Position numbers and translations under genes: made by a program. A stretch of 54,655 bases of DNA from Enterobacteria phage mEp021, in sequence record MH706966; one strand, given 5' to 3'. Below the pieces are notes generated by a model. That model did not search any database, was not told the origin of the DNA, and saw only the letters and a list, made by a program, of their open reading frames with translations. Below are positions 14,643 to 27,380 of this stretch, in pieces (within the stretch, counting starts at the first letter, position 1; every line of letters starts with the position of its first letter).

Positions 14643-14867
14643 ATGATCGAAGATAAAGAAGTTGACGTAGAAATTCCTGACAGCGCTGATGAGCTTATCA
14701 CTTTCGGCGGCGGCCTGTATGAGTTCGATACATCGGCTGGGTGGGTTGATAAGTGGCCTCAGCCTACTCGCCAGGAATTAATTAACCGCAAATCATTCGG
14801 CGAAGATGCAGAACGCCTTGCTAATAACAAGTGGCTTAACAAGTTCATTGCGGAGGGTGATAAATGA
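14643..14867 (+). CDS. Hypothetical protein (74 aa)
   Basis: ORF packed in the operon. Confidence 0.45.
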   Translation: MIEDKEVDVEIPDSADELITFGGGLYEFDTSAGWVDKWPQPTRQELINRKSFGEDAERLANNKWLNKFIAEGDK

Positions 14868-14977
14868 ACCTTGCAAAAATTGCCGCATTGCTTGCGGCTT
14901 TGTCTATCGCTGTGCTGTATCTCAGCGTATCGCTTTATATAACGGTAGCGATCATTAAACTCATTGCTAACATGTGA
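14864..14977 (+). CDS. Small single-TM peptide (37 aa)
   Basis: Not in the track. ATGA overlap with the upstream stop. MNLAKIAALLAALSIAVLYLSVSLYITVAIIKLIANM. Confidence 0.4.
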   Translation: MNLAKIAALLAALSIAVLYLSVSLYITVAIIKLIANM

Positions 14978-14985
14978 GGTTAATC

Positions 14986-15105
14986 ATGAAAGTCGGTAAG
15001 GATATTGTGACGGTCGCGTTTTGCATTATTTGCTTCCTATTTGTGGTTGTGTTTTGTGGCGGATTTGCAGCGCTGGTTAGCTTTATTTTCAGGGGATTGT
15101 TGTGA
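14986..15105 (+). CDS. Small single-TM peptide (39 aa)
   Basis: Not in the track. RBS GAGG. MKVGKDIVTVAFCIICFLFVVVFCGGFAALVSFIFRGLL. Its stop overlaps the next start. Confidence 0.4.
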   Translation: MKVGKDIVTVAFCIICFLFVVVFCGGFAALVSFIFRGLL

Positions 15106-24267: not shown

Positions 24268-24295
24268 ATTACCTAACAATGCGAAATTGTAATTA

Positions 24296-24317
24296 CCCGG
24301 CCCCGCGCCGGGTTTTT
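24296..24317 (+). terminator. Rho-independent terminator (tR'-like) between the late promoter and the holin gene
   Basis: CCCGGC-CCCGC-GCCGGG followed by TTTTT. Confidence 0.6.
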
Positions 24318-24337: not shown

Positions 24338-24538
24338 ATGTTCGACAGAATACGGGAGGCGTGTGCGTATGTGACTGGGGCCGTAACTGCTTTTTTCGGC
24401 GCTATAACCATCAATGACGTCGCTGTTTTCGTTGGTATCTTATCAACCATAGGCACATTTGCCGTTAATTATTACTTCAAATCACAGGAGAACAAGCGGG
24501 CGCAAGAGGAACACGACGCGCGAATGGGGAATAAGTAA
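24338..24538 (+). CDS. Class II holin (pinholin-like, two TM domains)
   Basis: 66 aa with two hydrophobic helices and a charged C-terminus. Immediately precedes a SAR endolysin, as in phage 21. Confidence 0.7.
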   Translation: MFDRIREACAYVTGAVTAFFGAITINDVAVFVGILSTIGTFAVNYYFKSQENKRAQEEHDARMGNK

Positions 24539-25030
24539 ATGATTAGCCAATCGCTGAAAAACAAGATTGTTGCGGCGGCGGCTGGTGGGGCGATCGCTAT
24601 TGCGGCGGTGATGATTAAGCCATTAGAGGGCGTGGAATACGATCCTTATCGTGATGTTGTTGGCGTATGGACTGTTTGCTACGGTCACACCGGAAAAGAC
24701 ATCATGCTTGGGAAGACTTACACGCAATCAGAATGCGATGCTTTGTTGAACAAAGATCTACATAAGACCGCAAAAGCGATTGACCCATATATCAAAGTCG
24801 AAATATCAGATTTTACCCGCGCTGCACTTTATTCATTCGCCTATAACGTAGGCGCAACCAACTTCAAAACATCAACCTTATTAAAGCTACTCAATGACGG
24901 CAAGAAATCAGAGGCGTGCGCACAGCTTAAGCGCTGGGTATACGCTGGCGGTAAGAAGTGGCAAGGCCTGGTTAACCGCCGCGAGGTTGAATATGCCGTT
25001 TGCGAATGGGGTGAGAAATGGACAAGGTGA
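24539..25030 (+). CDS. SAR endolysin (T4-lysozyme/GH24 fold, phage 21 R-like)
   Basis: 163 aa. The N-terminal Gly/Ala-rich signal-anchor-release segment [15 protein letters not shown] is followed by [33 protein letters not shown], close to my recollection of R21. Confidence 0.9.
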
Positions 25031-25488
25031 AGACGTTAATCATCGCCGTTGTTGTTTGCATTATTGCCGGACTGATCGCCGTAACGTGTTATTACCAGGG
25101 TGAAACGGCAAGGTTACAGGAAGAAGTCACGGTGACGAAAGGCGCACTGAAGACAGCAAGTAACACTATTCAGCAGATGAAGGAGCGAAACGCCGAACTG
25201 TCAAAACTTGATAAGAGGTATCACGATGAGATTAAAGCTATCAGATCTGACATTGCCGATCTGCGCACTGGCATTGATAACGGTACTATCAGGCTGCGCG
25301 TCAACGCCGTGCCAATGCGAACAGACAGTAATACCGGAACCTCCAGCCGCATTGATGGAGCCACCTGCGAACCTACTGCCGACGCTAAATCGGCTTATCT
25401 ATCCCTCAGAGAACAACTAAAAATAAAAGACGCACAGATCACTGGCCTACAGGACTACATCAAAACGCAGTGCTTACGCAAAGAATAA
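25018..25488 (+). CDS. i-spanin Rz
   Basis: 156 aa with an N-terminal TM anchor and coiled coils. Overlaps the endolysin end. Confidence 0.8.
25226..25420 (+). CDS. o-spanin Rz1 (lipoprotein embedded in Rz, +1 frame)
   Basis: [24 protein letters not shown] lipobox, Pro-rich mature part. RBS AAGAGG. Confidence 0.75.
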   Translation: MRLKLSDLTLPICALALITVLSGCASTPCQCEQTVIPEPPAALMEPPANLLPTLNRLIYPSENN

Positions 25489-25824
25489 CAGCGCGTGGAC
25501 GTGTCGCCGTTTCCGCCAGCCAGCCATAACCGGGCCAATCCTTCCCGCGAGCGACGGCAGAAATTCAAAAACACGTAATACCGGATCAACAGTCCCATTA
25601 ACAGGTCAGGCGCTACCTGGGTAGAAGAAAGCGTCATTACTCACCTGCCATGCGTAGGACGAGCGCCCGGATCTGTTTATCAGAGATGTTAAGCAGGTCC
25701 AGATTTATAAAATTCTGGAAACGGTACTCATGCAGCGCCGTTTTCAGTGTTTTATAGCTGTTTTCACTCCCTGCGGTGTCCAGTTTTGCGGGGGTTATAT
25801 TTTTCAGGATAGAGGAATATTCTG

Positions 25825-26409
25825 ATGGCTAAGGGTAAAGGCATTAAGTTGCCTCAATTCAAAGTTCCGCTCTTTGAGCATACAACAGTTTTCTTCTGCC
25901 CGACCCGCGACATGTTTTATGAATTTTGCGAAAGGGCCGGAATACCAATCGAACCTGATTTCGAACTGGCAGGAGGATTAACGCTTACTTGTACTGGTGA
26001 GAAAGGCGGTAATTTCTATGTGATCGCAGTATTCGACAATGAGTTAGGTACGCTGGTACACGAATGCGCTCACACTACATTCCACGTTCTAAGCGATGTA
26101 GGTGTCGTGGCAACCACTGATCCAACTCATCCGGCAAACGAGACATATGCTTACATGGTAGGCCGTATCTTTGACGCATTCTTCCCAATCCTGGCAGAGT
26201 CAAACGAAGCACAGATTGCAGCAATGCAGGCGGCTGAAGTTGTCGAGAAGGCATTAGATCAGGCAGAAAAGGCGACTGATGCAGCAGAGCAAGCAGTAAA
26301 ACAGGCAGAGGAACCGAAAGAAGAGAAAAAACCAGTTAAGAAAGGCAAACGTAAGCCTAAAGCAAAAGAGGCGCTTGTGCCGCGTGTTATGAGATTTAAA
26401 CGGGGGTGA
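25825..26409 (+). CDS. Hypothetical protein with an HExxH motif (HECAH) and a lysine-rich coiled-coil tail
   Basis: 194 aa with the RBS AGAGGAA. ELGTLVHECAHTTFHVL resembles a zincin active site. Confidence 0.55.
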   Translation: MAKGKGIKLPQFKVPLFEHTTVFFCPTRDMFYEFCERAGIPIEPDFELAGGLTLTCTGEKGGNFYVIAVFDNELGTLVHECAHTTFHVLSDVGVVATTDPTHPANETYAYMVGRIFDAFFPILAESNEAQIAAMQAAEVVEKALDQAEKATDAAEQAVKQAEEPKEEKKPVKKGKRKPKAKEALVPRVMRFKRG

Positions 26410-26411
26410 TT

Positions 26412-26486
26412 ATGATTGACCCGCTCATTATCCTTTCTGCCTGTGTCGCTGTATGGCTGGCGATCATGATATTCATCGAAAGCTGA
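26412..26486 (+). CDS. Mini single-TM peptide 1 (24 aa) MIDPLIILSACVAVWLAIMIFIES
   Basis: Not in the track. RBS GGGGGTGA. Confidence 0.4.
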   Translation: MIDPLIILSACVAVWLAIMIFIES

Positions 26487-26496
26487 AGGTGTTCAC

Positions 26497-26577
26497 ATGA
26501 ACGCATACGAAATGCTATTGCTGGTGGCTGTAGTTGTAGTCATTGCCGTTGATTTCTATCGAGGGTTTAAAAGATGA
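26497..26577 (+). CDS. Mini single-TM peptide 2 (26 aa) MNAYEMLLLVAVVVVIAVDFYRGFKR
   Basis: Not in the track. RBS AAGGTG. Confidence 0.4.
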   Translation: MNAYEMLLLVAVVVVIAVDFYRGFKR

Positions 26578-26645
26578 AAGAAGCAGACTTCTTTTGCATG
26601 ATTGTAGTGATCGTCATCATTGCGGTGATTTTAAACCTTAGTTGA
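26574..26645 (+). CDS. Mini single-TM peptide 3 (23 aa) MKEADFFCMIVVIVIIAVILNLS
   Basis: Not in the track. ATGA overlap with peptide 2. Confidence 0.4.
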   Translation: MKEADFFCMIVVIVIIAVILNLS

Positions 26646-26662
26646 ATCGCAGGGGGTTGAAA

Positions 26663-26731
26663 ATGAAATGGCTTGATTTCTTTTTCCTGATTGTTGCGAT
26701 TGTTCTAACCATGACCGCGCTTGCTCAATAG
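26663..26731 (+). CDS. Mini single-TM peptide 4 (22 aa) MKWLDFFFLIVAIVLTMTALAQ
   Basis: Not in the track. RBS AGGGGG. Confidence 0.4.
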   Translation: MKWLDFFFLIVAIVLTMTALAQ

Positions 26732-26800
26732 GTTATGGCTTGGACGCGCATTTTATGCGCTTCCTAAACTTAGTAAGCCAAAGAAAGAGAATGGCAAACA

Positions 26801-26884
26801 ATGAAATATCTATCCAGTTGGTTTGGTGTATCAATATACTTCGCAACATTAATCGAGTGTTTATATATAGTGAATAAATTTTAA
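26801..26884 (+). CDS. Possible mini hydrophobic peptide 5 (27 aa) MKYLSSWFGVSIYFATLIECLYIVNKF
   Basis: Not in the track. Weak RBS. Confidence 0.25.
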   Translation: MKYLSSWFGVSIYFATLIECLYIVNKF

Positions 26885-26894
26885 GAGGTGAATT

Positions 26895-27380
26895 ATGGCC
26901 CGCACTAAAAAGGCAAAGGCTGACGATAAAAAGACAGCCGCAAAAAGGGTGGGCCGTCCGCATGGTTATACCGAAGAAAAGGCATTAGAGATCTGTGAGC
27001 TGGTGGCGGACGGTCAAAGTATTAACAAGATTTCGAAGATGCCTGATATGCCTGCGCGTTCAACAATCCTTAAATGGTTCAGAGACGTGCCAGAGTTCTC
27101 GGACATGTACATACGCGCGAAGGAGATCGGTTTTGAGGTATTGGCTGATGAGATCATAGATATAGCAGATGCAGCGGAGAACATTGATAAAGACGAATGC
27201 CGCCGCCATCAACTGATGATTGAAACGCGTAAATGGCTATTGGCAAAACTGCAACCGCGTAAATATGGTGAACGCGTCACGCAGGAAATCGTTGGTAACA
27301 GGGAGGAAGCACCCGTCCAGGTAGAAGTCACGAAAGAAGAGATCGCCCGCATCGTCCAGGAAGTAGAAGACGAGGTGTGA
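26895..27380 (+). CDS. Terminase small subunit
   Basis: 161 aa. N-terminal basic HTH (GRPHGYTEEKALEICELVADGQSINKISK). Overlaps the start of the large subunit. Confidence 0.75.
   Translation: MARTKKAKADDKKTAAKRVGRPHGYTEEKALEICELVADGQSINKISKMPDMPARSTILKWFRDVPEFSDMYIRAKEIGFEVLADEIIDIADAAENIDKDECRRHQLMIETRKWLLAKLQPRKYGERVTQEIVGNREEAPVQVEVTKEEIARIVQEVEDEV

Follow-up and report, generated by a model that had tools for sequence, protein, structure and literature searches.

The DNA analysed here, which we call the window, is a stretch of 54,655 nucleotides (nt) from Enterobacteria phage mEp021 (sequence record MH706966), and our subject is the 485-bp gap in it between a gene for a protein with an HExxH motif and terS, the gene for the small terminase subunit. 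We found that this gap is filled by five ATG-started hydrophobic mini open reading frames (ORFs) of 22-27 amino acids (aa), and that these five ORFs are genuine protein-coding genes under protein-level purifying selection. Judged by comparison with related loci, they form a "core plus one" short version of a lineage-specific array of microprotein genes. All five lie on the + strand, at the positions where a preliminary description, made from the letters of the window and a list of its ORFs, had placed them; its count of "four, possibly five" was right in that the ORFs are real but understates an array that runs from three to 13 genes in different loci.

The evidence comes from 59 homologous loci, namely the window, five other phage records (mEp010, mEp013, mEp044, mEp554 and MagusPhagus), eight Escherichia coli prophages and 45 IMG/VR contigs, every one of which has the order HExxH gene, gap of 318-1154 bp, terS; an identical layout was found in four further loci beyond these 59. 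When we counted ATG-started hydrophobic ORFs of 20-60 codons (median 24 codons, with 79% shorter than 30), the + strand of the gap held 3-13 of them in each of the 59 loci and the - strand 0-2. The + strand ORFs cover 71-94% of the gap in 58 loci, the exception being mEp013, where coverage falls to 47% and an HNH gene has been inserted. Chance produces nothing of the kind: over 2000 Markov-1 shuffles of the window gap, a shuffled gap held on average 0.42 and at most three hydrophobic mini-ORFs, and none of the 2000 reached the five that are present.

Selection on these ORFs is specific to the frame. Pooled over families of homologous peptides, the ratio of nonsynonymous to synonymous polymorphism (pN/pS) was 0.25 in the proposed frame, as against 0.99 and 1.46 when the frame was shifted by +1 and +2, respectively, and by family it lay between 0.08 and 0.39 in 19 of the 20 families scored, family F11 giving 0.69 from three sequences. 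For comparison, the flanking genes gave 0.11 (terS) and 0.07 (HExxH gene). Variable sites fall at codon positions 1, 2 and 3 in the numbers 127, 88 and 240. The mean duplex energy with the anti-Shine-Dalgarno sequence is -5.0 kcal/mol upstream of the starts but -2.05 at random positions in the same gaps, and starts, stops, Shine-Dalgarno sites and ATGA overlaps are kept across relatives. The preliminary description had suggested asking whether relatives conserve the reading frames or just the DNA, and the answer speaks for genes, because it is the frames, as ordered and intact ORFs, that are conserved. Judged by the Shine-Dalgarno enrichment and by the coupling distances between the genes, the mini-ORFs are probably translated in vivo.

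Could the ORFs nevertheless have arisen by accident in a non-coding, T-rich stretch (a packaging-site region, for instance), or be the debris of a broken gene for a multi-pass membrane protein? The GC content of the gap (0.39-0.42) and its AT skew (-0.19) make a composition that by itself favours hydrophobic ORFs, and standard annotation calls nothing there. However, neither origin fits with selection confined to one frame, an excess of variation at third positions, intact ordered ORFs on a single strand in all 59 loci, a Shine-Dalgarno signal enriched at starts, a start codon for each unit, or five ORFs where shuffling predicts 0.42. The comparative data contradict a non-coding or pseudogene reading, and we consider it exceedingly improbable.

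Each of the five genes can be assigned to a family. Mini-gene 1 (26412-26486, +) encodes the 24-aa peptide MIDPLIILSACVAVWLAIMIFIES and belongs to the near-universal core family F01a, found in 54 of the 59 loci with a pN/pS of 0.27; its peptide is unchanged in locus L061, although the flanking HExxH protein there is only 59% identical. Mini-gene 2 (26497-26577, +; 26 aa, MNAYEMLLLVAVVVVIAVDFYRGFKR), whose peptide has an acidic head and a basic tail, is a member of the core family F02 (57 of 59 loci, pN/pS 0.25), which is paralogous to F15 and F06. The stop of mini-gene 2 overlaps the start of mini-gene 3 (26574-26645, +; 23 aa, MKEADFFCMIVVIVIIAVILNLS) in an ATGA, as the preliminary description had stated, and this third gene belongs to an accessory family, F10, found in 20 loci, with a pN/pS of 0.24 and paralogy to F04, F11 and F21 (z = 5.8-8.8). 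Mini-gene 4 (26663-26731, +; 22 aa, MKWLDFFFLIVAIVLTMTALAQ) is again core, its family F04 being present in 55 loci with a pN/pS of 0.13. The Shine-Dalgarno-like sequences that had been noticed before the first, second and fourth genes (GGGGGTGA, AAGGTG and AGGGGG, respectively) are present. As for the earlier impression that the mini-proteins are "paralogue-like", true paralogy could be demonstrated for the products of ORF3 and ORF4 (z = 6.0), that is, for two of the four.

After mini-gene 4 comes a 69-nt spacer (26732-26800) that holds no mini-ORF and stands where longer arrays hold families F05, F07, F11 and F12; a 59-69-nt version of it also occurs in L002, L005, L015 and L020. It contains the hairpin GCGCAT-TTT-ATGCGC (26745-26761), which we rejected as a structural element as its fold is not better than that of shuffles (z = -1.4). 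Mini-gene 5 (26801-26884, +; 27 aa, MKYLSSWFGVSIYFATLIECLYIVNKF) ends 10 nt before the terS ATG. This ORF had been presented as a "weaker fifth" candidate, a judgement that has to be reversed, as it is the best supported of all: it is assigned to F19, a variant of F03 (the two are homologous, z = 12.2), and one or other of these adjoins terS in 59 of 59 loci, with F03 having the lowest pN/pS (0.08) of all scored families.

As the preliminary description supposed, genes of this size fall below the thresholds of gene callers. The Prokaryotic Genome Annotation Pipeline (PGAP) leaves the gap empty or nearly so, and none of the five ATG-started window peptides occurs in a collection of about 15 billion proteins. 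Nor did the window peptides give a significant match in Pfam, PHROG or NCBIfam, or the region an Rfam match on either strand; one weak match, below threshold, linked F02 to a signal-peptide family (E = 0.031). GenBank record PP180003 places three small coding sequences (CDS) in the interval, of which only one is in a supported frame. The frame of ORF4 is annotated there as a 29-aa, TTG-started version (WWQ70453.1). Two CDS called by PHANOTATE, mEp515_65 (window 26543-26641), which crosses mini-gene 2 in another frame, and mEp515_67 (window 26755-26877), which covers the stretch of mini-gene 5 in the wrong frame, follow frames without protein-level selection (pN/pS about 1 or higher). The F01a, F02, F10 and F19 genes are without annotation in GenBank.

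That record bears on the identity of the phage itself, since a 1.6-kb query region around the array matches Escherichia phage mEp515 with 100% identity (PP180003.1; window positions equal record positions plus 700). On this match we take the window phage to be mEp515, a member of the mEpimmI group of Nus-dependent, non-lambdoid temperate coliphages, which were reported to be as common as lambdoid phages in human gut samples (PMC11893012). The lambdoid setting in which the array was first described must accordingly be dropped, as the group is termed non-lambdoid in that paper and terS is of the Sf6 type. The terS gene (26895-27380, +; 161 aa, with terL starting at 27377) encodes a protein about 38% identical to the small terminase subunits of Sf6 and HK620, and its homologue in L061 is assigned to PF20901 (Sf6_terminase).

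Across the 59 loci the peptides fall into about 23 families whose order never changes; loci differ by having or lacking entire genes. Array size ranges from 3 to 13 genes with a median of nine, so that the window, with F01a, F02, F10, F04 and F19, has one of the shortest. Four paralogue superfamilies could be recognized (z = 6-12 against composition-preserving shuffles), one of which includes ORF3 and ORF4 of the window. We also considered a tandem DNA repeat and rejected it, as the window gap has no direct repeats and the 13-gene array of L046 only short matches at chance level; the units resemble one another at the level of protein and architecture only. With no repeats left in the DNA, the duplications must be old. 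Turnover of whole genes, by comparison, is fast: there are 42 architectures among the 59 loci, and only 11% of locus pairs with terminase genes 98-99.5% identical share an architecture. Isolated losses of start codons and one frameshift were seen in accessory families. From these patterns, the non-core families look like paralogues of long standing that come and go rapidly and now and then decay into pseudogenes, as accessory genes do.

Larger insertions also occur at and near the locus. HNH genes are found in mEp013 (L005, 2046-2531), between the HExxH gene and the array, and in the metagenomic relative L061 (2752-3273), between the endolysin gene and Rz, and both look like homing-endonuclease insertions. 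Separately, an extra ORF for an acidic, non-hydrophobic protein of 47 aa (MVSNEELKMADEIRKALDAAENNETVYFSEREVEKMMDEFKLKFEKDN) lies between the last mini-gene and terS in L022 (2844-2990), and likewise in L037, L038, L043 and L060.

How widely is the array distributed? It is carried by 35 of 5426 complete E. coli genomes. Neither terS peptide patterns nor a degenerate pattern for F01a matched anything in the GTDB species representatives; in IMG/VR the F01a pattern led back to this phage lineage only, and a distant blastn search with a 13-gene array returned only the six phage records already known. Prophages of Pectobacterium, Raoultella, Cronobacter and Hafnia whose TerL is 68-70% identical (L086-L089) have no such array, and because it is missing from these prophages of other Enterobacterales we regard the array as lineage-specific. 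The interval from the lysis genes to terS is in these four an accessory hot-spot with genes for Rha/ANT, KilA-N, Tad2-like and PF18894 metallopeptidase proteins; in two of them the metallopeptidase gene abuts the small terminase gene. The Pectobacterium prophage has, in addition, an AcrIF11-like gene just upstream of its holin gene.

The peptides share a common design: an acidic head of 2-8 residues leads into a hydrophobic stretch of 15-19, and the tail that follows is neutral or basic. In 158 of 177 unique peptides of no more than 35 aa, the hydrophobic core is preceded by an acidic residue, which stands at position 5 in 101 of them. Mean net charge is negative on the N side (-1.1) and positive on the C side (+0.5), and the difference (C side minus N side) is above zero in 135 peptides and below zero in nine. 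Most families have an uncharged core of 15-19 residues, the tail consists of 0-5 residues, and the maximum Kyte-Doolittle value in a 15-residue window ranges from 1.9 to 3.7. Hydropathy, core length and charge pattern thus bear out the earlier view of a single hydrophobic helix per ORF, and by the positive-inside rule we predict that the peptides would sit in the inner membrane with the N terminus out and the C terminus in. That proteins this small can be membrane proteins in their own right is illustrated by YohP, a 27-aa E. coli protein that is bona fide membrane-inserted (PMC7549839). Within families, most substitutions are exchanges among I, V and L, while positions with D, P, W, Y, C or G are invariant.

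The array is tightly bound to its neighbours. The HExxH gene (25825-26409, +), for a 194-aa protein with the motif HECAH, stops 2 nt before the ATG of mini-gene 1, and this distance is kept in 58 of 59 loci; at the other end, 10-11 nt separate the last mini-gene stop from the terS ATG in 54 loci, and in the window the Shine-Dalgarno sequence of terS, GAGGTG, lies directly 3' of the stop codon of mini-gene 5. The most frequent internal junctions are -4 (ATGA), +8, -8 and +11 nt. A terminator scan found no terminator-like site between 26164 and 27500, and promoter-like matches in the region are no commoner than in shuffles. Because of this unbroken same-strand coupled run from the HExxH gene to terS, the missing terminator and the chance-level promoter matches, co-transcription of the array with the late genes, as claimed in the preliminary description, is plausible.

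Might the coupling itself be the function? The mini-ORFs would then serve as a translational relay from the HExxH gene to terS, preventing Rho-dependent polarity and setting the level of terS, with the peptides as by-products. The spacing at both ends, the overlaps and short spacers inside, the position of the terS Shine-Dalgarno sequence after the last stop codon, and the presence of a terS-adjoining member in every locus are all as such a relay would have them. Yet a relay does not call for constraint on the amino acids, and pN/pS is 0.25 overall and 0.08 in the terS-proximal family while the other frames give about 1 or higher; the uniform design of acidic head and helix would be superfluous; and in the four relatives whose TerL is 68-70% identical, the small terminase gene is directly preceded by other genes, with no array. 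We therefore think it very unlikely that the array is a relay only.

The HExxH protein at the head of the run combines an N-terminal domain of alpha/beta type with a long helix (about 60 residues) and a Lys-rich tail that is disordered. Its AlphaFold model is acceptable (predicted local distance difference test, pLDDT, 75.5), and a Foldseek search of this model against the PDB gave no significant match. The protein belongs to no Pfam or NCBIfam family and matches phrog_1365 (unknown function); one database homologue is labelled as having a PolyVal metallopeptidase domain, and BLASTP against the PF18894 protein of a relative detected no similarity. Nearly all of its homologues are from E. coli.

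Further upstream, on the same strand, lies the lysis cassette (24338-25488, +), with genes for a 66-aa holin with two transmembrane segments, an endolysin (24539-25030, +) with a signal-arrest-release (SAR) type N terminus, and an Rz i-spanin; these calls rest on the translations and on the Pfam assignments of the L061 homologues. SAR-endolysin systems are sensitive to membrane energisation, and small membrane proteins that regulate lysis, such as T4 RI, the antiholins of lambda and phage 21, and Mu releasin, are encoded near lysis genes. Might the peptides, then, be non-specific modulators of lysis timing that build up in the inner membrane late in infection and together thin the bilayer or make it leak, or that behave as holins or antiholins do, and so shift holin triggering and release of the SAR endolysin, with the number of peptides setting the timing? 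Short hydrophobic helices in which one hydrophobic residue mostly replaces another would suit this role, as would a copy number that varies between 3 and 13. Against it, the array has no match to a holin family (the best PHROG holin match, E = 0.04, involved only the 47-aa F12, a family absent from the window); a 336-nt gap and the HExxH gene stand between the array and the lysis cassette, and its coupling is to terS; the invariant polar, aromatic and Cys positions, specific to each family, argue for specific contacts; and nine different regulators, the median number, would have no precedent. For the five window peptides themselves, holin or antiholin identity was rejected on the grounds of no significant family match and tails of only 0-5 residues. 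We rate lysis modulation of this non-specific kind as rather unlikely.

Some observations concern the lysis region in its own right. Immediately before the holin gene, at 24295-24313, there is a strong terminator-like hairpin; GenBank annotates terminator T9 there, and its position is where a read-through terminator of the late operon would sit. The 336 nt that separate Rz from the HExxH gene contain a minus-strand ORF of 60 aa (25455-25637, -), which overlaps with the last part of Rz. This ORF is conserved, at 62 aa, in mEp044 and is a CDS in mEp013, whose record predicts a terminator, T11, in the same gap. We had also entertained the lysis cassette of mEp044 as a different one that would provide a natural test of holin specificity, but the difference proved to be an annotation artefact.

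Small hydrophobic peptides in a temperate phage also bring to mind the type I toxins, which are common in prophages. Ibs, ShoB, TisB, Ldr and Hok are hydrophobic peptides of 19-50 aa, some of them tandemly repeated, and in size and hydrophobicity the array peptides are like Ibs, ShoB and TisB. If they were toxins of this sort, or host-killing peptides of another sort, we would expect something of the organization of such systems, as a type I toxin gene comes with a promoter of its own and with an antisense RNA encoded in cis. The array showed neither: no antisense RNA family of Rfam matched on either strand, although an sRNA of an undescribed kind may still be present, and the two weak promoter-like sites on the - strand of the array equal the shuffled expectation. 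Searches at E <= 1 gave no toxin family of Pfam or NCBIfam, and the genes are part of a coupled late operon instead of forming separate toxin/antisense modules. A role as toxins is, in our view, highly improbable.

The explanation that we favour as a whole, with moderate confidence, is that of a coupled late microprotein array whose products act by helix contacts within the membrane. The array would share a transcript with the downstream part of the late operon, and translation would pass along a tightly coupled chain from the HExxH gene through the mini-genes to terS. The peptides would then insert into the inner membrane in the predicted orientation and, late in infection, act within the bilayer by helix-helix contact with other membrane proteins; as they have almost no soluble part, it is only inside the bilayer that they could act. 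Insertion, topology, late timing and mode of action are here suggested by gene arrangement and peptide design. E. coli AcrZ, MgtS, MgtR, KdpF and CydX are small single-pass regulators in the inner membrane, and the small membrane proteins of E. coli for which an action is known bind larger membrane proteins within the bilayer.

What would the peptides contact? One set of candidates comprises membrane proteins of the host or of competitors, whether membrane-embedded defence effectors or those involved in superinfection; these fit because the mini-genes behave as accessory genes and because the interval holds accessory and counter-defence genes in relatives. A second set is the phage's own lysis pathway of holin, SAR endolysin and spanin, which fits because of the timing and the SAR endolysin. 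The two sets seem about equally likely, each being a possibility that falls well short of probable, and what remains goes to other roles. Position is no clear pointer to lysis, given the coupling to terS and the separation from the lysis genes.

Several observations weigh against helix contacts as the mode of action. Besides that distance from the lysis genes, hydrophobic stretches of 15-19 residues are short for spanning a bilayer, and selection mainly for hydrophobicity would equally fit a non-specific, collective effect on the membrane. In addition, the array of L049, an uncultivated contig, is down to three mini-genes, with F01a, F02 and F04 all missing, so that even the "core" would be dispensable if the L049 phage is viable.

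A bolder version of intramembrane action, which we think unlikely, would make the array a diversifying toolkit of "helix binders", each peptide of 20-30 residues docking on the transmembrane part of a different inner-membrane protein of the host. Targets might be, for example, membrane-embedded abortive-infection or defence effectors that fire late, or the entry machinery of superinfecting phages, and the gain and loss of gene cassettes would then track the membrane repertoire of the hosts. If true, such a toolkit would constitute a new class of counter-defence or exclusion factors that consist of single transmembrane helices only.

The comparison with known systems brings out what is peculiar to the array. 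Small inner-membrane proteins of E. coli, YohP among them, are likewise 20-50 aa long, have one transmembrane helix and are missed by gene callers, but they are encoded by single chromosomal genes with their own regulation, whereas here 3-13 genes follow one another head to tail, translationally coupled, within the late operon of a phage; no sequence-family match connects the two, and the shared acidic head and cassette-like turnover are peculiar to the array. T4 RI, lambda S107 and Mu releasin gp25 are also small late membrane proteins encoded near lysis genes, in some cases in phages with SAR endolysins, but there are one or two per phage, they are 60-100+ aa long and they have soluble domains or dual-start logic. 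Searches of PHROG and Pfam found no homology between such regulators and the array, which, in contrast to them, is attached to terS.

Small phage genes have been surveyed on a large scale, and predictions of them are reported from Fremin et al. (2022, as cited in PMC11188072). As a general class, small hydrophobic ORFs under selection in phages and enterobacteria are known already, in the form of the hydrophobic intergenic small ORFs of Enterobacteriaceae termed ismORFs (PMC11188072) and the small transmembrane proteins of actinobacteriophages (PMC5679793). Like the mini-genes, these are short, selected, mostly hydrophobic or transmembrane, and missing from annotation; unlike them, they are scattered families or proteins averaging about 137 aa and not an ordered, coupled array. 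The preliminary description had held that an array at this position is not a described feature, and our search of the papers available to us turned up no account of the locus or of a comparable array; the mEpimmI paper (PMC11893012) mentions neither small hydrophobic ORFs nor the interval. What appears to be new, in that we found no description of it, is an ordered array, placed directly before terS, in which as many as 13 genes, each 20-32 codons long and built to one design, are translationally coupled and show cassette-like turnover.

The window contains, elsewhere, a second and smaller run of coupled hydrophobic mini-genes (14864-15105, +, possibly to 15183). Its first gene encodes 37 aa (MNLAKIAALLAALSIAVLYLSVSLYITVAIIKLIANM) and has an ATGA overlap with the preceding gene, and its second encodes 39-43 aa (MKVGKDIVTVAFCIICFLFVVVFCGGFAALVSFIFRGLL). 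Each of the five other related phage records conserves the stretch, at a DNA identity of 78-90%, and annotates its products as hypothetical proteins.

In each mEpimmI genome about 0.3-1.1 kb, with up to 13 genes under selection, is thus left blank by PGAP and mostly mis-framed in the phage records, which serves as a warning about annotation, in that length cut-offs hide genes and PHANOTATE picks wrong frames. The locus amounts to a compact natural library of minimal transmembrane helices, about 23 families of one design, with natural presence/absence variants in cultured, genetically tractable phages of E. coli K-12. It consequently offers a system in which to ask what tiny membrane proteins do in infection and how they insert, and how such genes are born, duplicated and lost.

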